A stretch of DNA of 56,684 nt from a virus, in the IMG/VR virus record IMGVR_UViG_3300033148_001052, positions 1 through 56,684 of that record, one strand, 5' to 3'. The notes under the pieces are model-generated. The model saw nothing but the letters and a program-made list of their open reading frames with translations. It did not search any database and had not been told where the DNA came from. Numbering within the stretch: the stretch's first letter is position 1; every line of letters begins with the position of its first letter. The translations under genes were made by a program, and so were the position numbers. This document shows, piece by piece, positions 7,513 to 51,344 of the stretch.

Positions 7513-7713
7513 ATGAAACAATTATTGTTTAGTGTTACTAGGGGGTATAAGCTGGATTTAGATGGGCGTGATACCGATGAGATGATAGCTAAGATGATTG
7601 AGGCTGTTGAAAATAATGATACGCTGATAGATTACTTCGGTGATATGCTAGACCTAGAGGAAATCTCTGAAGTGGTACACTTTGAAGGTAATGCTTGGGT
7701 TGAAGGAGAATGA
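7513..7713 (+). CDS. Hypothetical acidic protein (66 aa)
   Basis: ORF track. GAGGAGA Shine-Dalgarno site. Confidence 0.65.
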   Translation: MKQLLFSVTRGYKLDLDGRDTDEMIAKMIEAVENNDTLIDYFGDMLDLEEISEVVHFEGNAWVEGE

Positions 7714-7714
7714 T

Positions 7715-7978
7715 ATGAGTTATACAGTATCAAGGGATGCTGCTGATGTGTTGTTAGACATAGCTATCACACATAAAGTGAATGCTATTAAACAACTGAG
7801 GCGCATCACTGGCGCAGGATTAAAAGAGAGTAAGGACGCCATTGAAGATAAGTTTATTGGTGGAGGTGTAATTACTATTGCAGCAGGTGGGGGGAAGGAC
7901 AGTATTATTGAGGACTACATCAAGATGCAGATGTATCAGGCTCAGGTGTTTGAGAAACTAATGGAGCTGATGGAATGA
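7715..7978 (+). CDS. Protein resembling the ribosomal L7/L12 C-terminal domain (87 aa)
   Basis: KVNAIKQLRRITGAGLKESKDAIE aligns with E. coli L7/L12 [24 protein letters not shown] (about 14/24 identical). GAAGGAGA Shine-Dalgarno site before ATG 7715. Confidence 0.6.
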   Translation: MSYTVSRDAADVLLDIAITHKVNAIKQLRRITGAGLKESKDAIEDKFIGGGVITIAAGGGKDSIIEDYIKMQMYQAQVFEKLMELME

Positions 7979-10476: not shown

Positions 10477-10725
10477 ATGAGAACAGGTGAGGTATATCAG
10501 ACACGGGATGGAGGGCTTGTCATTAGGGTTGATAAGAATGATTACCCTGTTGATGAGTCTATAAAAAACGACCACCATTTCTGGGTACAACATCCCAAGC
10601 TTGATGGTAGTGGTAGTATTGGTGATGTTATATTTCAGATAGAGTTAGATGGTAATCCTTATGTAACACCATTAAACATTAATATATTTGACATACTTAA
10701 CGAGGTAATTAAAAATGAATCTTGA
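10477..10725 (+). CDS. Hypothetical protein (82 aa)
   Basis: ORF track. AGGAGGG Shine-Dalgarno site. Confidence 0.6.
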   Translation: MRTGEVYQTRDGGLVIRVDKNDYPVDESIKNDHHFWVQHPKLDGSGSIGDVIFQIELDGNPYVTPLNINIFDILNEVIKNES

Positions 10726-12430
10726 TTTCTATACAATACAAGCAAGGGTGAGGGCATTGGCTAATAGCATGGGACTCACTGTGCGAATGGAGGATGAGCA
10801 TCGTCCTCGTACTGATGGACGTACCATTTGGATTGGTAAGCCCTCCCCTACATGGGACAATGACAGGATGATTGATTGGGAATCTACAATCTACCATGAG
10901 ATAGGTCATGTAGTAGAAGAGATGAGGGATTGCTTTGAGATGTCCAAAGACAAAGACCTTAACATGGAATCGTTCCTAGGAATGCTTTGTAATCTATTGG
11001 ACGACCAACGCCAAGAGTATTTCAATCATGGGATGTATGTTGGTAGAGATAATGTTATGTCAGAAGGTAAGTCTATTGGCATGAATAGAATTATTAAGAA
11101 GATGATAGGGAAGAGTGAAGATAAGCACATGAATGCTCTCGAAGCTATGATGTACCTCGATGCTCAATACAGCTCTGACTACTACCCTCACATGTCAGGG
11201 GTGGCAGAGAATCTCTATCGTAATCTAAACACCCAAGGTAGAGAGATGGCTGACATCCTTGAACCACACAAGGAGGAGCTAGACCCTCGTGATGGTACAG
11301 CATGGGATGAATATGAGATTGCTCTTAAAGTAATTCGCCTGTTAGACTTTGATGAAGAGAAGGAGAAGGAGGATAGTAAGAAGGGCGAAGGGGACGGTGA
11401 AGGAGAGGAAGGAGAAGGCAAGGGCAAAGAAGGAGAGGGTGAAGGCAAGGGCAAAGGGAAAGGCAAAGGAAAGAAGGGGGATGGAAAGGATGAGGGTGAC
11501 TACGGAAAGTATATGATTCATAATCATTCCAAGGCTGAGGACTTTACTCCCGGACGACAGCCTGATGGTAGCTCCTATGAATATGTAGAGGAGGACAGTA
11601 CAGGTAGCTACATCCCTAGACCTCCTGATGAAATAGATATTCCTGACCTAGACAGTATGCCTAGTGATAGCTATTTCGAGGAACAAATTAATGATATTAG
11701 TGCAGGGAAGGGCTTGGCTAACCAAGTGAGGAAGCTGTTGCAAGTGAGGAGCCAGAGTTTCTATCAGCATGGCAGGAAGAAGGGTAAGATTGGTAAGAAC
11801 CTGCATCGTGCTACACTACAGAACAGTGGAGGTTATCAACAGAAGATATTTAAGCAGCGCATTGAGAACAACATGACTGATACAGTGGTGCAGTTAGTGA
11901 TTGACTGTAGTGGTAGCATGGGACACACTAAGTTTGCTCATGCAGCTAAGGCAGCACAAGAACTGAGCAATGTATTGGATGCCATTCGTATACCAACTGA
12001 AATCATTGGGTTCACTGAGACAGCTAGACATCTAGTGCATCCAGTGTTCAAAGGGTTCAATGAAAAAGTTCCTGAGAACATTCTTGTTGAGAGGTTTGCT
12101 AAAGCTTCCAACCTACAGGCTAACAATGCTGATGGTGAGAGTATATTGTGGGCTTTCAATCGTATCATCAAGCAACCTAACAAGAGGAAGCTTATGATTG
12201 TATTGTCAGATGGTATGCCCGCATGTTACAATCGGTCAGGCTCTATCTCTGACTTCACTAAGGAGGTGGTGGGTGGTATTGAGAAGAGTCCTGTAGAAAT
12301 CTATGGCATTGGCATCATGGATGATAGTGTTAAGCGTTACTACAAACAGAACGCTGTGATACATGATGCAGGTGATGTTGAATCAACACTTATCAAGCTA
12401 CTTAAAGATAAGATAATTGGGAGAGGGTGA
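10715..12430 (+). CDS. VWA-domain protein, CobT-like, with an N-terminal HExxH motif and a central Gly/Glu/Lys low-complexity linker
   Basis: MIDAS motif DCSGSMG, YHEIGH near the N-terminus, linker GEGDGEGEEGEGKGKEGEGEGKGKGKGKGKK. Paired with an AAA+ ATPase downstream. Confidence 0.75.
   Translation: MNLDFYTIQARVRALANSMGLTVRMEDEHRPRTDGRTIWIGKPSPTWDNDRMIDWESTIYHEIGHVVEEMRDCFEMSKDKDLNMESFLGMLCNLLDDQRQEYFNHGMYVGRDNVMSEGKSIGMNRIIKKMIGKSEDKHMNALEAMMYLDAQYSSDYYPHMSGVAENLYRNLNTQGREMADILEPHKEELDPRDGTAWDEYEIALKVIRLLDFDEEKEKEDSKKGEGDGEGEEGEGKGKEGEGEGKGKGKGKGKKGDGKDEGDYGKYMIHNHSKAEDFTPGRQPDGSSYEYVEEDSTGSYIPRPPDEIDIPDLDSMPSDSYFEEQINDISAGKGLANQVRKLLQVRSQSFYQHGRKKGKIGKNLHRATLQNSGGYQQKIFKQRIENNMTDTVVQLVIDCSGSMGHTKFAHAAKAAQELSNVLDAIRIPTEIIGFTETARHLVHPVFKGFNEKVPENILVERFAKASNLQANNADGESILWAFNRIIKQPNKRKLMIVLSDGMPACYNRSGSISDFTKEVVGGIEKSPVEIYGIGIMDDSVKRYYKQNAVIHDAGDVESTLIKLLKDKIIGRG
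11351..11497 (+). repeat. About 147-nt almost pure polypurine tract with short GGCAAGGGCAAAG-type repeats (encodes the G/E/K linker)
   Basis: Read directly from the sequence; the coding strand is nearly all A/G. Confidence 0.8.
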
Positions 12431-13041: not shown

Positions 13042-14142
13042 ATGACTACATCTACACTAGAAAGTAAAGTGAAGGAAGTGCTGGCTCGTAAGATGGGTGG
13101 AACTACTGCTCCACCTACACCTAAGACTCCTGCTAAGGAACCAGCAACATTCATCAAGTCTCGTATGGACAAGGTGGGGAAGAAGGCTGCATCGGGATAT
13201 GTTAAATACTCTGAGCTGTTTGGACAAACACCTCCCTCTGGTAATGATTGGGATGTGAAGGTGTTTGCTGACAGTGATTGGGATGAGGATGATAAGGTAT
13301 TTATTCCTAGCAAGGAGAAGTTCGAGGACTACGTTATCAACCATGCTGTCATGGAGCAACTGATTGTTGGATATAATTCTAACATGAAGATGCTTGTGGT
13401 TGGCCCAACAGGGAGTGGTAAGACTAGTTTGCAAGAACTACTGTGTGCCTACATCAACCAACCCTACTACCGTATCAATGGTCGTCAGGATATGGAGACT
13501 GACACCCTGCTCGGTAAGCCTTGGGTGAGTGAGGGGTCTATGCACTATGAGAAGGGTGAGCTGCCTAAGGCTCTTAAGAAGGGATGGTATGTAGCCTTTG
13601 ATGAGCCTTGGAAAACTCCTGCTGGAATTCAAATGGCTCTTCAACGCTTCTATGAGAAGGATGGTATTCTACAGCTTGATGATATGCCCGGAAGCTTGGC
13701 AGATAAGCAGGTGATTAGTGATCCTCGTACCCGTCTGGTGCTGAGTGATAATGTTGTAGGCACAGGGGATGGTGCTGACCAATACGGAGCCACCATGATT
13801 CAGGATGGGTCTACACTCAATCGTATGGACATGGTGATTAAGATGCCTTACATGAATCAAGCAGAGGAAGCCACGCTTATTCGTAAGAAGCACCCTGCCA
13901 TCTCTAAGGATGCAGCTACTAAGATGGTTAAGTTCTTTAACCTTGTACGTACAAGCTACACTCAGCGTATTGTATCTGCTGCTGTATCTCCTCGTAACTA
14001 TGATGCTTGGGCAAACCTAGCTACCAAGCTTAACAACCTTGAGATGGCCTGTAAATGGACTGTGCTTGAGCGTTACGCAGAGGATAGTGAGAAGGCTGTT
14101 GTTCGTGACCATTATAAAACTGTGTTCGGTAAGGTGCTGTAA
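13042..14142 (+). CDS. AAA+ ATPase, CobS/MoxR-like
   Basis: Walker A VVGPTGSGKTS, Walker B YVAFDEPW, 366 aa, next to the VWA protein. Confidence 0.8.
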   Translation: MTTSTLESKVKEVLARKMGGTTAPPTPKTPAKEPATFIKSRMDKVGKKAASGYVKYSELFGQTPPSGNDWDVKVFADSDWDEDDKVFIPSKEKFEDYVINHAVMEQLIVGYNSNMKMLVVGPTGSGKTSLQELLCAYINQPYYRINGRQDMETDTLLGKPWVSEGSMHYEKGELPKALKKGWYVAFDEPWKTPAGIQMALQRFYEKDGILQLDDMPGSLADKQVISDPRTRLVLSDNVVGTGDGADQYGATMIQDGSTLNRMDMVIKMPYMNQAEEATLIRKKHPAISKDAATKMVKFFNLVRTSYTQRIVSAAVSPRNYDAWANLATKLNNLEMACKWTVLERYAEDSEKAVVRDHYKTVFGKVL

Positions 14143-17575: not shown

Positions 17576-17773
17576 ATGAAAAGAAAGATGCCTGTGCCTA
17601 TTAAGCATATCACTACTAGGAGATTCTTATTAGGAGGACTATGTAATGCCAGTGAGTGTGGGCCAGCGGATTGTTCTAATTGCTCTTATGATTATAAGGA
17701 CAAAGGGGACAACACTATAACAAACAAAGAACTATGGGAGGCATTTAATAATGTACTTGATTACAGACCTTGA
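17576..17773 (+). CDS. Small four-Cys protein, family member 4 (65 aa)
   Basis: LLGGLCNASECGPADCSNCSY...LWEAFNNVLDY. Confidence 0.6.
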   Translation: MKRKMPVPIKHITTRRFLLGGLCNASECGPADCSNCSYDYKDKGDNTITNKELWEAFNNVLDYRP

Positions 17774-18926
17774 GACTTCTGTGAAGAATGTTGGGGAGGG
17801 AGCAATAGGAACTAACAAAGCTAATGTCCATCATCCAGATAATAGGATTGTTATGTATGGCTTTAAGATGGAGGGGAAGCCAGAAGTTACAGGACATTAT
17901 AAGGAGTCTCATGTTAAGGGCATGACAATCCCACCTGAGAAATGGAAGAATGTTGACATATTAGTAGGACACAATGTTAAGTTTGACATTCAATACCTAT
18001 GGAAGTTCCATCCTGAACTCAAGCCTTGGTTTAATACAGGGAAGATATGGGACACACAGTTGGCGGAGTACATCCTGTCAGGACAGACACATCTATACCC
18101 TAAGCTAGACGATTGCTCTGTTAAGTATGGAGGTACACTTAAGGACGATAGGATAAAGGACTATTGGAATTCAGGTGTTGACACTGAGGACATCCCTGAG
18201 CATGAGCTTAAGGAATATCTTGAGTGGGACTTGAAGAACACAGAGACAGTGTTCCTACATCAAGTAGCTAAGGCAGAAGAACTAGGGATGATAGATTTGA
18301 TATGGTTCCAGATGGATGCCTTGCTATGTACAACAGAGATGGAATGGAATGGTATGTACTTCAACAGAGAGACAGCCGAGGTGTTGTCTGATAAGGTAGG
18401 GAGGCAGAGGGATGCGTTGCTAGATAAGCTAACTATTGTCATGGAAGCTGCGGGTATTCGTGATGTCAATCCTTTAAGTAATGACCATGTATCCTTGTTC
18501 TTCTTTGGTGGAGAGCAGAAGTATAGAGCTAGGGTTCCTATTATGGATGAGGTTACAGGGATGCAGAAGGTGTATGGCCCTACAGCTATGAAGGCAGGGC
18601 AAGGTAAGTTTAGAATAGAGGACAGGGTAGAGAGCATCAAAGGGTTTTTAGTTCCTAAGAAAGAATATGAAGCTAAGAAGCCGGGGTTCTACAAGGTGAA
18701 TGATGAGGTGATGAATGACATCAAGGGGGACAGTGAGCTGGCGTTAGATTTCCTTAAGCTAAGACAGCTTAATAAAGACATCAATACATATTACAAGGGG
18801 TATAGTGATTTGGTGTGGCCTAATGGTTTGATACATGGTAGCTTGAATCATTGTGCTACTGCGACTGGTCGCCTATCTTCAACAAAGCCCAACATGCAAA
18901 ACATATCTAGCTATGAGGAGGAATAA
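17751..18926 (+). CDS. Family A DNA polymerase, part 1 (3'-5' exonuclease plus N-terminal polymerase region)
   Basis: Exo I ITDLET, Exo II HNVKFDIQYL. Ends right after TGRLSSTKPNMQNI. Confidence 0.85.
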   Translation: MYLITDLETSVKNVGEGAIGTNKANVHHPDNRIVMYGFKMEGKPEVTGHYKESHVKGMTIPPEKWKNVDILVGHNVKFDIQYLWKFHPELKPWFNTGKIWDTQLAEYILSGQTHLYPKLDDCSVKYGGTLKDDRIKDYWNSGVDTEDIPEHELKEYLEWDLKNTETVFLHQVAKAEELGMIDLIWFQMDALLCTTEMEWNGMYFNRETAEVLSDKVGRQRDALLDKLTIVMEAAGIRDVNPLSNDHVSLFFFGGEQKYRARVPIMDEVTGMQKVYGPTAMKAGQGKFRIEDRVESIKGFLVPKKEYEAKKPGFYKVNDEVMNDIKGDSELALDFLKLRQLNKDINTYYKGYSDLVWPNGLIHGSLNHCATATGRLSSTKPNMQNISSYEEE

Positions 18927-18928
18927 CT

Positions 18929-19156
18929 ATGGGCATAGAAGAACTTAAATTATTCTGGGCTAACATTGAGAGTGAGAAGGAGATAGACCAGAGGCTTACC
19001 TATCAACACATGATGAACAAGAGTGTCTCCGATACACCCTTGACACACATTGAGCATACATATCTCTATAGGTATAAGGGGAAGTTTGAGAGTGTAGAGG
19101 CACATGAGATTGACATTAGTTATGCTAAGATATTCTTAGTGGGAGGAGGGAAATGA
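18929..19156 (+). CDS. Hypothetical protein (75 aa) in the gap of the split polymerase
   Basis: GAGGAGGA Shine-Dalgarno site, ORF track. Confidence 0.55.
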   Translation: MGIEELKLFWANIESEKEIDQRLTYQHMMNKSVSDTPLTHIEHTYLYRYKGKFESVEAHEIDISYAKIFLVGGGK

Positions 19157-19323
19157 ATAGTAAGGAGTTACAGATTATCTCAGACTTGGTGGTGAAGTTG
19201 ACAGAGCTAAGGCAAAGCAAATGCCCTCAGTTATGTGTAGAGAACTTCGCTACTAATTGTTTTGGACAACTACTTGGGGAATATACAATGCACAAGCAAG
19301 GAATGATTAGACTAGGAGAATAG
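19153..19323 (+). CDS. Hypothetical protein (56 aa) in the gap of the split polymerase
   Basis: ATGA overlap with the previous stop. 57 codons to TAG 19321-19323. Confidence 0.45.
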   Translation: MNSKELQIISDLVVKLTELRQSKCPQLCVENFATNCFGQLLGEYTMHKQGMIRLGE

Positions 19324-19324
19324 T

Positions 19325-20188
19325 ATGAGCCAGATTAAAGAATGCTTTGAGTCTAGGTATGGGGAGGATGGTGTCATTATGGAGGCTGACTTCTCTCAGC
19401 TAGAAGTAATTGGGCTGGCCTTTATATCAGGAGACAAGCAGCTAAAGAAAGATATTGAGGATGGGTTGGACAGTCATTGTCTTAATGCAAGCCTATTGTA
19501 CAATGAAGACTATTCTTTTATTAAATCTAGGGTGGATGCAGGGGATAAGGAATGGATTAAGAAACGTAAGATGAGTAAGGCTCCGGGATTCCTCATCATC
19601 TATGGTGGTGGGGCTATGGCTATGGCTAAGGCTACAGGGCTACCACAGGCTCAGTGTCAGGAGTTCATAGACAACTACTACTCTAGGTATTGGAGAGTGA
19701 AGGAATGGCAGGACGAGGTGATACAGGACGTTAGAGATAGCAGGGTGATGACTACCAAGCGTACTGCTGCTGGATTCCCTGCTGGTCAGGGGGAATACAT
19801 ATCCATCACAGGTAGAAAATATGTATTTACAGAGTATGATGCACCTGATTGGATGATGGAGAAGACAAGCTTCTCTCCTACACAGATGAAGAACTATGGT
19901 ATCCAAGGGTTTAGTACAGGAGACTTGGTTCCCTTGGCACTAGGTAAGTTATATAGAAAGATTAAGGAGAGGTTTAATGAAGAAGTAAAACTAATCAACA
20001 CCATCCATGATAGTGTGTTGCTTGACTGCCCTGTAACATGTTACAAGGAAGTGGCACAGGTTGTTAAGGAAGTATTAGAAGATACACCAGCATACTTTGA
20101 GGAGATATATGGGATTGAGTTTCCCTTAGAACTCAAGGTTGATGTAGAAGTTGGAGAGACTTGGGCAACTAAGGCTTCAATTAAATAG
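19325..20188 (+). CDS. Family A DNA polymerase, part 2 (motifs A, B and C)
   Basis: Motif A IMEADFSQLEV, motif C-like TIHDSVLLD. AGGAGA Shine-Dalgarno site. Confidence 0.85.
   Translation: MSQIKECFESRYGEDGVIMEADFSQLEVIGLAFISGDKQLKKDIEDGLDSHCLNASLLYNEDYSFIKSRVDAGDKEWIKKRKMSKAPGFLIIYGGGAMAMAKATGLPQAQCQEFIDNYYSRYWRVKEWQDEVIQDVRDSRVMTTKRTAAGFPAGQGEYISITGRKYVFTEYDAPDWMMEKTSFSPTQMKNYGIQGFSTGDLVPLALGKLYRKIKERFNEEVKLINTIHDSVLLDCPVTCYKEVAQVVKEVLEDTPAYFEEIYGIEFPLELKVDVEVGETWATKASIK
20033..20046 (+). promoter_or_regulatory. Recurrent palindrome GTAACATGTTACAA (copy 11, intragenic)
   Basis: Inside the 3' end of polymerase part 2, 150 nt upstream of the -35 at 20197. Confidence 0.5.
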
Positions 20189-20196
20189 AATAAAGC

Positions 20197-20225
20197 TTGA
20201 CAAAACTTAAGCGTTGTGATATAAT
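20197..20225 (+). promoter_or_regulatory. Perfect sigma70 promoter TTGACA-N17-TATAAT with extended -10 (TGaTATAAT)
   Basis: ttgacaaaacttaagcgttgtgatataat, intergenic, 40 nt upstream of ATG 20265. Confidence 0.8.
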
Positions 20226-20264: not shown

Positions 20265-20702
20265 ATGAGTCAGAATATTGAAATCACAGGTAAATGTAAG
20301 TGGGCTAAAGTACAATCACCAGACACACAGTACACACCATGCTGGTCTATTGATATGATACTGGAAACTGATGTAGCTCAGGAGCTAGAGAAGCTAGGCA
20401 TCCCTGTTAAGACAGACAAGGATGGTGATATGATTATTAAAGTTAAGCGTAATGTCACCGCTAAGAGTGGTAAGCCTAATGACCCACCTGAGGTGGTAGA
20501 TAGTGCAGGTAATCCATTCTCTAGTATGATTGGTAATGGGTCTACTGTTACAGTGGGTATGGCTGTGTTTGATTGGACACATGCTGGTAAGACAGGGGTT
20601 ACATGCTTCCTGAATAAGGTGACGGTGGTAGACCTAGTGGAGTTTGGTGGTGACACACTAAGCTTCGGTAAGGTTCCAGCCTCAGTAGGATTGTTCGACT
20701 AA
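20265..20702 (+). CDS. Single-stranded DNA-binding protein, T7 gp2.5 / DUF2815-like (putative)
   Basis: 145 aa, OB-fold-like pattern G..VTVGMAVFDW...GVTCFLNKVTVVDLVEFGG. Sits in the replication module behind a strong promoter. Confidence 0.55.
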   Translation: MSQNIEITGKCKWAKVQSPDTQYTPCWSIDMILETDVAQELEKLGIPVKTDKDGDMIIKVKRNVTAKSGKPNDPPEVVDSAGNPFSSMIGNGSTVTVGMAVFDWTHAGKTGVTCFLNKVTVVDLVEFGGDTLSFGKVPASVGLFD

Positions 20703-20798
20703 TTCCTCCTCATCCTGAGCTAGATGTAAAATAGTTCCCTCCCTTGTAGGAGGTTAAATAATAGTCCTGAGCATGACTCGTAACTAAAAGGCTCACTT

Positions 20799-20877
20799 GG
20801 GGGTGATAGGTATCGACAGAAGTAAAAGCCTACATGGAAGCTTCTGGAAGGGAGTTCGATTCTCCCCACCTCCACCA
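20799..20877 (+). ncRNA. tmRNA tRNA-like-domain (TLD)-like RNA, 79 nt, with no anticodon arm and no mRNA-like domain
   Basis: 7-bp acceptor stem GGGGGTG/CACCTCC with a G3-U70 wobble, A73, encoded CCA. T arm GGGAG-TTCGATT-CTCCC. The 5' segment GGGGGTGATAGGTATCGAC parallels the tmRNA 5' consensus. A CAGAAG/CTTCTG helix is capped by an 18-nt loop. Confidence 0.65.
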
Positions 20878-20897
20878 AATTTATAGGAGGAATAGTT

Positions 20898-21116
20898 ATG
20901 GAACTTGAAGACTTTAAGTTCTCTGTTCGTAACGAGAAGGAGAGTAGGGCAGTACAGGAGACCTTGTTCTCCGTTGGTTATAAGTGGCAGAGTGGAGGTA
21001 AAGAAATAAACCACACAGAGGCAAAGCACTTGTTTGCTCATTCGGTTGGTATAATAAGTTATGGTGGTAGTAGAAATTATTTCAGACGGAAGCCTCACAA
21101 GGAGATTAAGCTATGA
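20898..21116 (+). CDS. Hypothetical protein (72 aa)
   Basis: AGGAGG Shine-Dalgarno site, ORF track. Confidence 0.6.
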   Translation: MELEDFKFSVRNEKESRAVQETLFSVGYKWQSGGKEINHTEAKHLFAHSVGIISYGGSRNYFRRKPHKEIKL

Positions 21117-28329: not shown

Positions 28330-28685
28330 TGAAGGAGCCTACAGCAACAGAGGTAAGAATGAAGTGGGCAGAAGCTTCTAAATTATATAAGGAGAGTTTG
28401 ATGATAGGAGGAGCACCTATGGCAATAGGAATGGGTACTAGTGGAGTAGCTATGAAGAAAGATACTAAGGGTGAGATAATGGATGAGGTGGCTGAGGTTA
28501 TAGCCACTATGAAGATGGAATATGAGGGGAGGATAGCTGGATTAGAGGCTACAGTGAAGAAGCAAGGGGATATGATAGATCATTATCTGATTCCTGTAAC
28601 TACAGCTAAGGCTACTAAGCATCCATCTATTTCTGGTATTACCACACTGTCTCCCGGAGCTGTGTGGGCAACAGGAATATTATAA
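28329..28685 (+). CDS. Hypothetical protein (118 aa)
   Basis: TAATG overlap with the RNR stop. Confidence 0.6.
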   Translation: MKEPTATEVRMKWAEASKLYKESLMIGGAPMAIGMGTSGVAMKKDTKGEIMDEVAEVIATMKMEYEGRIAGLEATVKKQGDMIDHYLIPVTTAKATKHPSISGITTLSPGAVWATGIL

Positions 28686-30638: not shown

Positions 30639-31153
30639 TGCCAAGTAAAGAAGAGAATATCAAAGAGTATTATATCGACCAATACAAACAGATGCATTCT
30701 AAGAAGGTGTATGGTATTAGCTCCAAACATCTAGTGGGAGCTATTGCTCCTCTAGTCAGGGAGTTTAATAGTGTCTTAGATTATGGTTGTGGTCAATCTG
30801 AGTTTCTAGATAAGCTACCTAATGAAGTGAAGTATCGTTATGACCCCGCAATTAGCAAGCACAACAAACAACCCAATCCCGAAGATGTAGATGTGGTCAC
30901 ATGTCTTGATGTTATGGAGCATGTCCCTGAAGAAGCTGTGGATGAAGTGCTTAAAGATATTCATAGGCTGAGTGACAAGGCTGTGTTTGTTATTAGTTTA
31001 GTGGAAGCTGCATGTAAACTCCCTAACGGGGAGCAAGCACATACAACAGTCCGAAGTAAAGCATGGTGGACTGAGCGCATCGAAGCTGTGTTTGGTAAGA
31101 CACAGAGGATGAAGCATAAGCGGAATGGAATTCTGTTCCTAAAAACTTTCTAA
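30638..31153 (+). CDS. Class I SAM-dependent methyltransferase
   Basis: Motif I VLDYGCGQS, then DVVTCLDVMEHVPEE. 171 aa. Confidence 0.75.
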   Translation: MPSKEENIKEYYIDQYKQMHSKKVYGISSKHLVGAIAPLVREFNSVLDYGCGQSEFLDKLPNEVKYRYDPAISKHNKQPNPEDVDVVTCLDVMEHVPEEAVDEVLKDIHRLSDKAVFVISLVEAACKLPNGEQAHTTVRSKAWWTERIEAVFGKTQRMKHKRNGILFLKTF

Positions 31154-31686
31154 AGTCTCTTAATTAAACCATCAGAATGGAGGGAGTCGAATGCGGCTCT
31201 CTCTACATTTAAATCATGGCTCCTAGGATTATGGTTCTCCTCTTTTATAAATCTATTAGGCGTGGAATAACCATCAAAACCAATAATAGTTACATCTTCT
31301 CCTAGATGTAAATAATATAGAATAGCCATTAAACCGGAAGTAGGTTTAGTCTTTTTAGATTCATTTTTATATGAGGCAGCTAAGTCCCAATAAAGTTCTT
31401 TAGAAATTGTAGAGGCTTTATCAAGTGCATTTAGAGGGCATGTTTCCTCAGTGATAGGTCTTCCATCCACCCTCAATAATTTCTTATATTGACTATCTCC
31501 TATAAGTGCTTCTATTGACTTGTAGAGAAAATCTCTTTTAAATATTCTACTACTACCTCCCCACACCCATACATCACAATCACCTTCACAGATTCCTAGG
31601 TTTATTCTAACTACTATATCATAGTCATCTGCATTGAAAGTAGGTAGATTAGAACCCCCTCCAATAATTAATACTTTTTCTTTCAT
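31150..31686 (-). CDS. Small Rossmann-like glycosyltransferase-like protein (GT42/Maf/DUF115-like), paralogue B
   Basis: VLIIGGGSNL..DYDIVVRIN, KPTSGLMAILYYLHLGEDVTIIGFDGY, SHDLNVE. The pattern recalls Cst-II-type sialyltransferases. Confidence 0.4.
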   Translation of the reverse strand: MKEKVLIIGGGSNLPTFNADDYDIVVRINLGICEGDCDVWVWGGSSRIFKRDFLYKSIEALIGDSQYKKLLRVDGRPITEETCPLNALDKASTISKELYWDLAASYKNESKKTKPTSGLMAILYYLHLGEDVTIIGFDGYSTPNRFIKEENHNPRSHDLNVERAAFDSLHSDGLIKRL

Positions 31687-50230: not shown

Positions 50231-50991
50231 TACATACGACCTGTACTATTGGAGGTCATATATTCATCCATAGGATTGAGGTCATGGCGCATACGCTTAA
50301 GTCCTCTATTGTATTCAGTGAGGGCTGCTCGGCTTTCTTCTGTGTTAGCTTTGAACTGGTGTACATAGTAACGGATACGAGACATTAGTACAGGGAGATA
50401 TTGAGAGGGCATTACAATACTATCATCGTAAGCATTTAGAATTGTCAGTTGATCCCAAGCAAAATAGTATATACGATATATACCATCAGGGATGGGAGAG
50501 AGACCAAACTGATTATTATTTGGATAGCGCATGACACGCTTAGGTTGTCCATAGGTTTGTTGGTCAGACTTATCACGATTCTCTGTAGAAGCAAAATACC
50601 GTTTCCAATCTGTCATACTCACTTCTGGAACATGCTCCACTACATAGGGAGCTGTCTTACCTGATACACCCTCTTCCGTAAGAGTGAATGAAGCCCAATC
50701 TACATGGGCATATTGCTCATCGGCTTCCGTTGCAGAATCCTTTAAGTCATACCAGCGTTGTCCTGCTACAGTCTCAATGTAAACATTACCTAGGTGTTGC
50801 TCTGAGCTTTCACCTGTAGCCATCCAAGGCCACTTATGTTCCTCATCGTGGATGTCACGATAGGCTCTGTTCACTGCTGAACGTACGAAACGCTGTATGT
50901 TGGTGCTTGTTGAAAAGTTAGCTGAGGTCAATGGAACTTCATTGATCTCATATAACACCTCATTTACAATATCTAGGAAACTGGTACTCAT
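50230..50991 (-). CDS. Tail adaptor / tubular protein A-type (253 aa, by position)
   Basis: Gene order only. Confidence 0.4.
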   Translation of the reverse strand: MSTSFLDIVNEVLYEINEVPLTSANFSTSTNIQRFVRSAVNRAYRDIHDEEHKWPWMATGESSEQHLGNVYIETVAGQRWYDLKDSATEADEQYAHVDWASFTLTEEGVSGKTAPYVVEHVPEVSMTDWKRYFASTENRDKSDQQTYGQPKRVMRYPNNNQFGLSPIPDGIYRIYYFAWDQLTILNAYDDSIVMPSQYLPVLMSRIRYYVHQFKANTEESRAALTEYNRGLKRMRHDLNPMDEYMTSNSTGRM

Positions 50992-51344
50992 AGTTCTTCT
51001 ATACTCCGATTTTCTTCAAGTTTGCCTGTGGCACCATTCCTACTTCTACCTTTACTCTTCATATCCGCCATGTTATCTGTATGGGTTCCTAAGAAGAGAT
51101 GCTCTGGGTTTACACATGATGGATTATCACATGTATGTAATACTTGGTATGGCCCTATATTAGTTTCATTATATAGTTCATACGCTATTCTGTGTGTTCG
51201 TTGTCCTAAGAATTGTCCGTAACCTTGTTTTGTTTTAGTTCCGACCCATTCCCAACAATCTCCATCACACTCTTTATCTACTTTTCCTTCAAACATATCA
51301 ACAAAAGATGTTACTTGTTTGAATTCACATAAAGGAATATACAT
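50988..51344 (-). CDS. HNH homing-type endonuclease (118 aa)
   Basis: GDCWEW.G....GYG, HRIAYEL, HTCDNPSCVNPEHLFLGTHTDNMAD. Confidence 0.85.
   Translation of the reverse strand: MYIPLCEFKQVTSFVDMFEGKVDKECDGDCWEWVGTKTKQGYGQFLGQRTHRIAYELYNETNIGPYQVLHTCDNPSCVNPEHLFLGTHTDNMADMKSKGRSRNGATGKLEENRSIEEL

Follow-up and report, generated by a model that had tools for sequence, protein, structure and literature searches.

A tmRNA reduced to its tRNA-like domain (TLD) is already known as such, from mycobacteriophage DS6A, from jakobid mitochondria and from two plastids. The DS6A gene is on record as tmID 11587 of the tmRNA Website. A similar TLD-only molecule is reported to be a strong inhibitor of the endogenous tmRNA of E. 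coli, with titration of SmpB as a possible cause (Mao et al. 2009, RNA Biol 6:355, as cited in PMC4131195 and PMC11915505); according to PMC4131195, this inhibition is independent of chargeability. In the tmRNA database, the "standard, no CDS" class holds 9 of 97,179 sequences, one of which comes from a phage (PMC11915505). Tag-less tmRNAs are also kept, together with SmpB, in jakobid and oomycete mitochondria (RF02544) and in Mallomonadaceae plastids (∼65 bp) (PMC11915505, PMC3985003). Synthetic TLDs from T. thermophilus and A. aeolicus (Gutmann 2003) bind SmpB 1:1 (PMC3985003, PMC3022190), and a 63-nt T. thermophilus construct (5' 25 nt, UUCG, 3' 34 nt) has been co-crystallised with SmpB (2CZJ; PMC3985003).

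Here I describe a 79-nt RNA gene of this type in a virus genome, referred to as the window, which is the whole 56,684-nt stretch of DNA that was analysed. The DS6A mini-tmRNA (hereafter, such RNAs are called minis) is located at positions 28478–28560 of its phage and scores 56.9 bits with the family model R1. Like the window RNA it is phage-borne, ∼80 nt long, and possesses an acceptor stem beginning with GGGG, a G3·U70 pair and a discriminator A; its D-loop analogue likewise ends in UCGAC, with a G(G/C)AC junction. The DS6A helix 2a carries a GAAAA bulge and an inner CCGCACGCGG hairpin, an architecture also found in the window RNA, and the layout of its T arm (GTTCGATTC) is the same. Outside of the conserved motifs the identity is low, however, and the 3' end is ACTA in DS6A and ACCA in the window; DS6A also falls below the Rfam gathering score, while the window RNA is above it. 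The carriers differ as well: DS6A, a siphovirus, is temperate and infects Mycobacterium tuberculosis, whereas the window is assigned to a lytic-looking, HMO-2011-type marine podovirus, whose hosts are likely Alphaproteobacteria.

With E. coli ssrA and RF00023, the window RNA shares the acceptor stem, G3·U70, A73-CCA, the D-loop analogue, helix 2a and the T arm. One-piece tmRNA however possesses PK1–PK4, a resume codon and a tag reading frame, all of which are missing here, and since there is neither resume codon nor tag, the mRNA half of trans-translation is impossible for this molecule. The full-length tmRNAs of phages (Bxz1-type mycobacteriophages, Melnitz, JWDelta, S-CAM3) are phage-encoded homologues, often found beside tRNA genes, but they keep the tag frame, either in one piece or permuted, and are called complete by ARAGORN and Rfam. 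The organellar TLD tmRNAs are, like the window RNA, naturally devoid of tag and pseudoknots; in contrast to it they are usually permuted or two-piece, and have their own genome's SmpB and a dedicated compartment, whereas a phage RNA must compete for host factors. The synthetic TLDs share with the phage minis, and above all with those of a short class, a design consisting of the TLD, the start of helix 2 and a tetraloop. In the window RNA, helix 2 is longer than in these constructs, and includes an internal junction that is conserved as well as an additional small hairpin.

Identity and fold of the 79-nt RNA

The sole Rfam match across the whole 56.7-kb window is tmRNA (RF00023), at 20799–20877. 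This covariance model gives a score of 66.3 bits (cutoff 47, E 1.1e-23) over model positions 1–374, of which ∼308, representing the pseudoknots and the tag ORF, are replaced by 14 nt. In Rfam clan competition the tmRNA model beats tRNA, and the score with the family model R1 is 82.7 bits. A sequence-only reading of this stretch had proposed that it resembles the TLD of tmRNA with nothing else attached and that no anticodon arm can be drawn; the full-length match with the body deleted bears out the first point, and ARAGORN, which reports 0 tRNA or tmRNA genes and no tag peptide in the window, agrees with both. The resemblance to tmRNA is far beyond chance. At the level of sequence and predicted fold, 20799–20877 is confirmed as a CDS-less, TLD-only tmRNA gene, homologous to tmRNA over the entire TLD and helix 2a. 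It fits the "Standard, no CDS" class, with a full TLD, a hairpin-closed helix 2 and a length of 79 nt (∼60–85 nt in the class). The gene is composed of the following parts:

20799..20877, + strand: mini-tmRNA gene (TLD-only, CDS-less), encoded CCA included (RF00023, R1, MFE fold)
20799..20805, + strand: acceptor stem 5' strand, GGGGGUG (GGGGGTG in the DNA), with G3 of G3·U70 at 20801
20806..20816, + strand: D-loop analogue AUAGGUAUCGA, without a D stem (alignment to the Rfam consensus)
20813–20815, + strand: U15-C16-G17, equivalents of E. coli U17-C18-G19 (SmpB contacts)
20817..20823, + strand: helix 2a 5' strand, CAGAAGU (fold, covariation)
20824..20839, + strand: helix 2 cap, with 5' bulge AAAA, mini-hairpin GCC-UACAU-GG and 3' bulge AA (MFE fold)
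20840..20846, + strand: helix 2a 3' strand, GCUUCUG (fold, covariation)
20847..20849, + strand: junction GAA (GGAA with G48; the consensus in the family and in tmRNA is GGAC)
20848, + strand: A50, equivalent of E. coli A334 (SmpB Trp122 pocket)
20850..20866, + strand: T arm, GGGAG-UUCGAUU-CUCCC (RF00023 alignment, MFE fold)
20867..20873, + strand: acceptor stem 3' strand, CACCUCC (CACCTCC in the DNA), with the U70 equivalent at 20871
20874, + strand: discriminator A (A73), followed by the encoded CCA at 20875–20877 (RF00023 alignment)

The MFE fold of this RNA has an energy of −28.4 kcal/mol (z = −2.1). The acceptor stem with its G-U third pair, the discriminator A, the CCA and the T arm are all located where the sequence-only reading had placed them, and the 5' segment GGGGGTGATAGGTATCGAC does parallel that of E. 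coli ssrA, GGGGCTGATTCTGGATTCGAC. The CAGAAG/CTTCTG helix that it had drawn is also present, and is extended in the MFE fold by a U-G pair and a 2-bp inner hairpin. Only 16 nt (20824–20839) separate the two strands of helix 2a; the mRNA-like domain is absent, and the RF00023 alignment and the fold leave no sequence from which PK1–PK4 could form. Their place, and that of the tag ORF, is taken by the helix 2 cap, whose consensus in the mini family is (U/G)AAA-CCGCAUGCGG-A, and whose asymmetric junction agrees with that between helices 2a and 2b in the consensus of the Rfam tmRNA model.

In cryo-EM structures of E. coli tmRNA, residues U17, C18, G19 and A334 contact SmpB (PMC8363625). Their equivalents U15, C16, G17 and A50 are invariant in the family and all kept in the window RNA, as part of an elbow motif comprising U15 C16 G17 A18 C19 and G48 G49 A50, but with A51 instead of C. 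At the level of sequence, the proposal of an alanine-chargeable RNA is supported, as its determinants (the AlaRS identity set and the SmpB-contact nucleotides) are all retained.

Two other assignments were considered for this element. The model of two-piece (permuted) tmRNA, RF04321, reaches just 21 bits against a cutoff of 47, on a stretch that overlaps the element, which is itself collinear and self-contained. An ordinary tRNA-Ala was rejected as well, with no gene found by ARAGORN and a fold in which a single hairpin replaces the D, anticodon and variable arms.

Genomic setting

The RNA is surrounded by the following features:

20197..20225, + strand: sigma-70 consensus promoter TTGACA-17 nt-TG-TATAAT (12/12 match)
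20265..20702, + strand: gene for a gp2.5-like ssDNA-binding protein (SSB), directly upstream of the RNA (phrog_112, E 4.8e-12)
20898..21116, + strand: small ORF of 72 aa (phrog_17589), with an AGGAGG ribosome-binding site at 20885–20890

The RNA starts 96 nt past the SSB stop codon, and was therefore rightly placed just after this gene in the sequence-only reading. It had also been placed downstream of a consensus promoter, which holds in part: the promoter is on the + strand and perfect, but it precedes the SSB gene and, rather than being directly adjacent to the RNA, is ∼570 nt away from it. There is no promoter-like site immediately upstream of the mini-tmRNA, and no terminator-like site on the + strand between the 20197–20225 promoter and the mini-tmRNA. 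This promoter probably starts a transcript that carries both the SSB gene and the mini-tmRNA. As the AGGAGG of the 72-aa ORF is located 8 nt past the 3' end of the RNA, the latter is embedded in a polycistronic replication operon.

Elsewhere in the window, the L7/L12 C-terminal-domain-like protein that had been pointed out is supported by a match of ORF 7682–7978 (+ strand) to PF00542 (29.8 bits, cutoff 25.9). No SmpB gene was found in the window. An integrase was not found either, every ORF of at least 170 aa having been scanned against PHROGs, Pfam or both. Searches for relatives of this particular locus were negative: a DNA search with 18–24 kb of the window gave no close relatives, a related-locus search with the phage exonuclease and a sequence-specific pattern for the window mini returned nothing, and the exact SSB protein has no record. 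The nearest cultured relative by TerL, Pelagibacter phage HTVC115P, has no mini.

Related minis in phages and metagenomes

In viral and metagenome contigs, a pattern scan with structural validation identified at least 197 minis of distinct sequence, whose median identity is 55%. Of the 246 pattern matches listed, 228 form the acceptor stem (7/7) and the T stem (5/5) perfectly at positions that the pattern left free, and among these 228 family members only 110 have an encoded CCA. The family includes a short class of 62–67 nt, and some phages carry two copies. A variant of the pattern, with 8 N rather than 7 before CTCCA, revealed a subfamily with a bulged T stem (L024–L027); five matches to this 8-N pattern in bacterial genomes look like chance.

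I then compared the minis position by position. The G3·U70 position is G·U in 14/14 sequences of alignment A1 and 91/98 of alignment A3, and U70 is present in all 16 matches for which the search pattern permitted C or U; in Streptomyces phage LuckySocke, G3·U70 is kept though pair 4 has changed. At the junction, in positions left free by the pattern, conservation across minis is 100% for G48, 88% for G49, 100% for A50 and 88% for C51. Helix cells are paired at 99% in A1 and 97% in A3, compared to 44–59% in slid controls, with 578 compensatory cells and changes in all three helices. Covariation is seen for 6/7 (A1) and 7/7 (A3) pairs of helix 2a, and for 4/5 pairs of the T arm. These pair counts are from A1 and the Infernal alignment A3; a MAFFT alignment (A2), in which the 5' ends are shifted, was left out. 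The alignments indicate that the family is under strong structural (purifying) selection, in many unrelated phages.

The minis occur in several contexts. In ∼23 loci the mini is at most 13 nt from a tRNA gene; minis are often located inside phage tRNA arrays, and some follow terminase genes. Five cultured Streptomyces phages, with Shaeky, LuckySocke and pSt2308 among the cultured carriers, possess unannotated minis, which fill gaps inside their tRNA arrays. The terminase-adjacent subgroup has a relative in Microbacterium phage Biscayne, whose 125-nt terminase-portal gap is devoid of a mini. Unbiased clustering of the genes next to minis revealed no conserved partner. ORF 50988–51344 of the window, with homologues directly after a mini in four loci, was considered as a functional partner and rejected, being an HNH homing endonuclease.

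ARAGORN, which is commonly used to annotate tRNA and tmRNA in phages, overlooks ∼97% of the family minis; the current Rfam model detects 20/20 of those tested. BLAST of the 79 nt against GenBank phages gave no minis; all of its matches were 3'-end ones, with tRNAs and with phage tmRNAs that are either full or permuted. The scale of the family, which is large and mostly unannotated, appears to be new.

Possible functions and their implications

The reading that I favor, with a probability of roughly 55%, is that the TLD-only tmRNA of this lytic HMO-2011-type phage acts as an alanine-charged, SmpB-binding competitor of host tmRNA, and thereby prevents tagging. The mini-tmRNA would be part of the replication-gene transcript that starts at the 20197–20225 promoter, and would be excised in the manner of a tRNA, by RNase P at the 5' end and by 3' trimming to the encoded CCA. 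Host AlaRS would charge it with alanine by virtue of G3·U70 and A73; host SmpB would be bound through U15, C16, G17 and A50, and EF-Tu through the acceptor and T arms. The RNA would then rival host tmRNA both in binding SmpB and in entering stalled ribosomes, whose A site is empty. Because it offers neither a resume codon nor a tag, trans-translation and ssrA tagging in the host would be suppressed during infection, and the RNA would amount to a dominant-negative tmRNA. I infer processing and expression from the tRNA-adjacent minis, the copies in Streptomyces tRNA arrays, and the upstream promoter with no intervening terminator.

Several points weigh against this competitor model. The inhibition experiment with a DS6A-like RNA is heterologous, having been done in E. 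coli. According to PMC4131195, inhibition also occurs without chargeability, which leaves the strictly conserved alanine identity elements unexplained if the RNA is a pure sponge. The likely alphaproteobacterial hosts use a two-piece tmRNA, and competition by a one-piece TLD is assumed. The junction of the window RNA reads GGAA, and not GGAC as in 88% of the family. Finally, stalled ribosomes are costly to the phage too.

The main rival, which is possible but on balance rather unlikely, is a rescue of ribosomes without tagging. Here, the alanine-charged RNA would, with SmpB, take over the nascent chain in a stalled ribosome, and the peptidyl-Ala-TLD would be released with proteins left unmarked, either through an ArfB-type factor or by drop-off and then Pth, as proposed for the tag-less mitochondrial tmRNAs. 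The strict conservation of AlaRS identity and of a tRNA-like acceptor/T arm, needless for a passive SmpB sponge, argues for such a role, as does the spread of minis under purifying selection through unrelated phages, sometimes in two copies, and their co-location with phage tRNA genes that support translation. The tag-less tmRNAs of jakobid mitochondria and of two plastids persist together with SmpB, and presumably assist in dealing with incomplete mRNAs (PMC11915505). However, tag-less tmRNAs have been argued to be incapable of bacterial-type trans-translation (PMC3985003), and the sole experiment on record is reported to have given inhibition and not rescue (PMC4131195). In addition, no release factor or Pth gene recurs beside the minis.

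It is improbable that the RNA acts away from the ribosome, as an anti-defence decoy in which the TLD mimic soaks up RNase R, SmpB-like sensor domains of defence systems, or tRNA-directed nucleases. Some phage tRNAs may stand in for those that host defences eliminate, and minis do sit among phage tRNAs. There are precedents for the targets: AcrIIIA1 yields ∼90-nt tmRNA/tRNA fragments that bind RNase R and Cas10-Csm, as an anti-CRISPR mechanism (PMC11662646), and CoCoNuT defence systems carry SmpB-like domains that are predicted to bind tmRNA (PMC11090510). However, the neighbours of minis show no recurrent linkage to known anti-defence genes, and every ribosome-entry feature is conserved, which goes beyond the needs of a nuclease decoy.

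Less probable still is that the RNA merely serves as a processing signal, an RNase P/RNase Z site that splits the SSB message from the downstream replication genes, and has no role once excised. Punctuation of transcripts by tRNA-like elements is an established principle, and the position inside a polycistronic unit, between the SSB stop codon and the next ribosome-binding site, would suit it. An acceptor/T minihelix would however suffice for this purpose, and UCGAC...GGAC, G3·U70 and the helix 2a/2b junction are nonetheless conserved, in family members found in many different contexts.

Lastly, it is hardly credible that the element is a remnant, be it an attP core copied from the ssrA gene of a host or what is left of a complete phage tmRNA gene in decay. 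Prophages do commonly integrate at ssrA, pieces of which are found in them (PMC9004378), and the known carrier DS6A is temperate with a tyrosine integrase. However, that integrase is 10 kb away from the mini, no integrase was detected in a scan of every window ORF of 170 aa or more and none recurs among 150 immediate neighbours of family members, the window element has both 5' and 3' halves, perfectly paired, and is not the 3' fragment of a host gene that an attP core would contain, and neutral decay is excluded by at least 197 unique minis at 55% median identity whose helices are kept by compensatory changes.

Beyond the competitor model, I also entertain, tentatively, a broader reading, in which TLD-only tmRNAs are a widespread and ancient phage tool for actively reprogramming rescue, serving tag-free release of stalled ribosomes once charged with alanine and bound to host SmpB, or acting as decoys against tmRNA-sensing or RNase R-linked defences. 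If this were true, phage protein output would be shielded when host or phage nucleases shred mRNA, and the helix 2a/2b junction would be a functional contact rather than a leftover. Minis would then have this role in hundreds of phage lineages as different as marine podoviruses and Streptomyces phages, often in tRNA arrays.

For the window itself, the annotation of this intergenic segment is settled, as a CDS-less tmRNA gene. Culturable phage-host pairs make it tractable to ask what role phage tmRNA genes play, and whether a TLD alone rescues or blocks. As trans-translation is an antibiotic target, the minis may also be of use as natural inhibitors or probes of it that evolution has already tested.

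The TLD-only RNA and its match to tmRNA

At 20799–20877 (+), the sequence-only reading had described an acceptor stem of 7 bp whose third pair is G·U, a discriminator A followed by a genomically encoded CCA, a T arm of canonical form, a 5′ segment of tmRNA type, and a hairpin replacing the tmRNA body. All of these are present in the 79-nt sequence, GGGGGUGAUAGGUAUCGACAGAAGUAAAAGCCUACAUGGAAGCUUCUGGAAGGGAGUUCGAUUCUCCCCACCUCCACCA, and the minimum-free-energy fold (−28.4 kcal/mol, z = −2.1) gives the same drawing. ARAGORN reports no tRNA and no tmRNA over the whole window. The Rfam tmRNA model RF00023 matches the element with 66.3 bits (E 1.1e-23; gathering cutoff 47 bits), in an alignment spanning model positions 1 to 374 where 14 nt stand for 308 model positions, and no other segment of the window reaches the Rfam gathering threshold; the permuted-tmRNA model gives only 21 bits. 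The presence of a segment resembling tmRNA's tRNA-like domain (TLD) is confirmed, and its interpretation as a TLD-only tmRNA-like RNA (hereafter mini-tmRNA) was right. At the level of sequence, homology to the TLD and helix 2a of tmRNA, without the mRNA part, is demonstrated.

In E. coli tmRNA, residues U17, C18, G19 and A334 contact SmpB, as seen by cryo-EM, and the G19C mutation abolishes SmpB binding (PMC8363625). Their counterparts in the window RNA, U15, C16, G17 and A50, are all present, and are invariant across the mini-tmRNA family.

A family of mini-tmRNAs

A first pattern, whose fixed elements were just a 5′ end of tmRNA type, TCGAC, the T loop and the 3′ end, retrieved RNAs of 62–83 nt from 16 viral contigs. 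A looser pattern (GGGG, TCGAC, T loop and CTCCA), to which the census is biased, matched at least 119 viral and at least 120 metagenome stretches. At pattern-free positions, 228 of the 246 matches listed possess a complete acceptor stem (7/7) and T stem (5/5), where I estimate a chance expectation of ∼0.1%, from (6/16)^7; at least 197–199 of these perfect-stem sequences are unique. In a verified alignment of 14 sequences, 99.2% of cells are paired, against 50–59% with the partners slid, and 57 are compensatory, against 16.6 in shuffles. An Infernal alignment of 98 distinct sequences gave 97.0% paired (44–56% slid) and 578 compensatory cells against 174 shuffled, a value that none of 500 shuffles reached. 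The median pairwise identity is only 55%.

The tmRNA-specific, pattern-free nucleotides G48 (100%), G49 (88%), A50 (100%) and C51 (88%) are conserved, the window having A at position 51. U70 of the G3·U70 pair is found in all 16 first-pattern matches although the pattern allowed C, and the pair is kept in Streptomyces phage LuckySocke despite a change of the adjoining pair. Of the 228 mini-tmRNAs listed, only 110 have the CCA encoded in their gene.

Among these 228 loci, lengths show a main peak at 80–83 nt and a lesser mode at 62–67 nt. The long class, including the window RNA, has one layout, consisting of helix 2a, a 5′ bulge (U/G)AAA, a small inner hairpin whose consensus reads CCGCAUGCGG, and A as the 3′ bulge. 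Aligned to the Rfam model, E. coli ssrA shows the same arrangement: a 12-bp helix 2a, a 3-nt 5′-strand bulge facing a 1-nt 3′-strand bulge, and then helix 2b, ending CAUGC/GCAUG. This helix 2a/2b junction is kept in the long class and absent from the short one. Because the cap layout matches that of ssrA, the mini-tmRNAs look like tmRNA cut beyond the first helix 2b pairs and then capped, and so appear to have originated by internal deletion of tmRNA rather than from a tRNA.

A pattern variant, outside the main pattern, yielded a subfamily with one bulged T-stem base (GCGGG-TTCAATT-CC-A-CGC), and some viral contigs carry two different mini-tmRNAs a few kb apart (coordinates local to each locus):

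L024 2613–2688, bulged T stem
L025 5108–5183, bulged T stem
L026 1465–1537, bulged T stem
L027 4588–4660, bulged T stem
L025 1562–1638 and 5108–5183, two mini-tmRNAs
L069 6175–6254 and L096 8192–8271, two mini-tmRNAs on contig IMGVR_UViG_3300027749_000047

Genomic setting

The window, about 56.7 kb long with 42% G+C, has the appearance of a complete phage genome. Its T7-like replication module comprises a DnaB-type helicase, a split family-A DNA polymerase, a gp2.5-like single-stranded DNA-binding protein (SSB), a 5′–3′ exonuclease, an HNH endonuclease, a phosphoesterase and a ribonucleotide reductase; the structural module, on the opposite strand, encodes a portal/adaptor, large terminase, P22-like coat, SU10-type adaptor and tail fibre. 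The large terminase shares 59–61% identity with its counterparts in Pelagibacter phages HTVC115P, 104P and 103P and 45–49% with those in Roseobacter CRP phages; all of these are HMO-2011-type podoviruses of marine Alphaproteobacteria. No integrase was detected among ORFs of at least 170 aa, each searched against PHROGs, Pfam or both, and no SmpB among all ORFs with phmmer and E. coli SmpB, or among those of at least 170 aa with PHROGs/Pfam.

Features of the window:

7682–7978 (+), L7/L12 C-terminal-domain-like ORF, 98 aa (PF00542)
10715–12430 and 13042–14142 (+), CobT-like and CobS/AAA-ATPase-like genes (phrog_17276, phrog_249)
17751–18926 and 19325–20188 (+), family-A DNA polymerase, split in two genes
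18929–19156 and 19153–19323 (+), two small ORFs between the polymerase halves
20197–20225, perfect sigma-70 consensus promoter, upstream of the SSB gene
20738–20753 (+), 6-bp GC-rich hairpin CCTCCC-TTGT-AGGAGG
31150–31686 (−), 178-aa ORF, weak match to glycosyltransferase family 29 (sialyltransferase; PF00777, 26 bits, cutoff 23)
50988–51344 (−), HNH homing endonuclease

The SSB stop codon is 96 nt upstream of the RNA, and the following gene has its ribosome-binding site starting 8 nt past the RNA's 3′ end. Given this tight spacing, a promoter upstream of the SSB gene, and no terminator-like site between promoter and RNA on the + strand, the RNA is most probably excised from the polycistronic replication transcript. 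The 20738–20753 hairpin, located past the SSB stop codon and ahead of the mini-tmRNA, is followed by no T run on the + strand, and might stabilise the 3′ end of the SSB message once the RNA is excised.

The L7/L12-like protein proposed from the sequence is borne out by PF00542 (29.8 bits, cutoff 25.9, covering model positions 2–36 of 67) and by phmmer against E. coli L7/L12 (E 7e-6), and is a predicted second translation-related element of the phage. The polymerase split recurs in three distant relatives (L041, L043, L012). CobT/CobS-like auxiliary genes are typical of marine phages. The PF00777 match is weak though above cutoff, and a glycosyltransferase family 29 gene is unusual in a phage.

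Across the family, tRNA genes are present in 58 of the 228 loci listed, with the mini-tmRNA within 13 nt of one in about 23 of the 58; in one locus (L103) it ends a 14-tRNA array. Five cultured Streptomyces phages carry TLD-only tmRNA genes within tRNA arrays:

LuckySocke, L264 1501–1581 (OR725497.1 17977–18057)
pSt2308, L265 1501–1581 (PV588686.1)
Shaeky, L266 1501–1582 (MT701595.1)
GiJojo, PP725410.1 17025–17102
Alone3, OR725492.1 18169–18231

GenBank has no annotation for these RNA genes; in GiJojo, the segment is entered there as gene 44, a hypothetical protein. In the first three (Rfam tmRNA scores of 57–61 bits), the mini-tmRNA occupies an unannotated gap, starting in Shaeky 4 nt past tRNA-Phe. 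The mini-tmRNAs are under structural selection, and their genomic placement is tRNA-like, which points to an RNA that is produced and processed much as tRNAs are.

No conserved protein neighbour was found among the flanking genes examined. These come from phage types that are unrelated to each other and encode capsid, portal, terminase, helicase and homing endonucleases; genes for an integrase, SmpB, Pth or a release factor do not recur among them. Homologues of the window HNH homing endonuclease lie ∼50–60 nt downstream of a mini-tmRNA in four other loci (L069 6308–6586, L079 9032–9286, L096 8324–8593, L118 9952–10230), and such endonucleases seem to move together with mini-tmRNA genes, as happens with phage tRNA genes.

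Known relatives and proposed mechanism

The kind is already on record, though rare, and the window RNA is one more member; the novelty is therefore less than first claimed. Hudson, Lau and Williams list “Mycobacterium phage DS6A (TLD only)” and cite work of 2009 in which a similar molecule reportedly inhibited E. coli tmRNA (PMC4131195). Of the 97,179 sequences covered by a 2025 tmRNA database paper, 9 are classed as “standard, no CDS”, among them DS6A and two genes of about 65 bp from plastids; the paper also reports mitochondrial tmRNAs without a tag frame (PMC11915505). The DS6A element (L022; JN698994.1 28478–28560, flanked by gp33 and the gene for DNA polymerase III) is unannotated in GenBank and RefSeq. 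It shares the window architecture, including a GAAAA bulge and the CCGCACGCGG hairpin, but ends in ACTA instead of ACCA; it scores 56.9 bits with a covariance model built from mini-tmRNAs, and falls below the RF00023 gathering cutoff. The TLD crystallised with SmpB from T. thermophilus, joining the 5′ 25 nt and 3′ 34 nt of tmRNA via UUCG (PMC3985003), has the same design. No description of a wider phage family of TLD-only RNAs was found in the literature searched.

The window RNA would be transcribed from the promoter upstream of the SSB gene, cut at its 5′ end by RNase P and trimmed at its 3′ end, and alanylated through G3·U70 and A73. It would then bind host SmpB and EF-Tu and compete with host tmRNA, so that host trans-translation and tagging would be suppressed, to which I assign a probability of roughly 0.55. 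This outcome is the best supported since, going by the passages on the DS6A-type RNA in two papers (PMC4131195, PMC11915505), it is the only one with experiment behind it.

The main rival, productive tag-free ribosome rescue, would account for the strict conservation of the charging determinants, for which an RNA that only soaked up SmpB would have no use, and tag-less tmRNA persists together with SmpB in organelles (PMC11915505); but tag-less tmRNAs have been argued to be unable to complete trans-translation (PMC3985003), and I consider such rescue rather unlikely. An anti-defence decoy is a lesser candidate, suggested by AcrIIIA1 tmRNA fragments that bind RNase R (PMC11662646) and by the SmpB-like domains of CoCoNuT systems (PMC11090510); so is a role purely as a processing signal. 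The data contradict a reading as an attP remnant or pseudogene.

TLD-only tmRNAs are far commoner than the record suggests. ARAGORN mostly misses them, calling 7 of the 228 listed, as tRNA or tmRNA, though the current Rfam model detects all 20 tested. Since mini-tmRNAs exist in culturable Streptomyces phages, their mechanism is directly testable.
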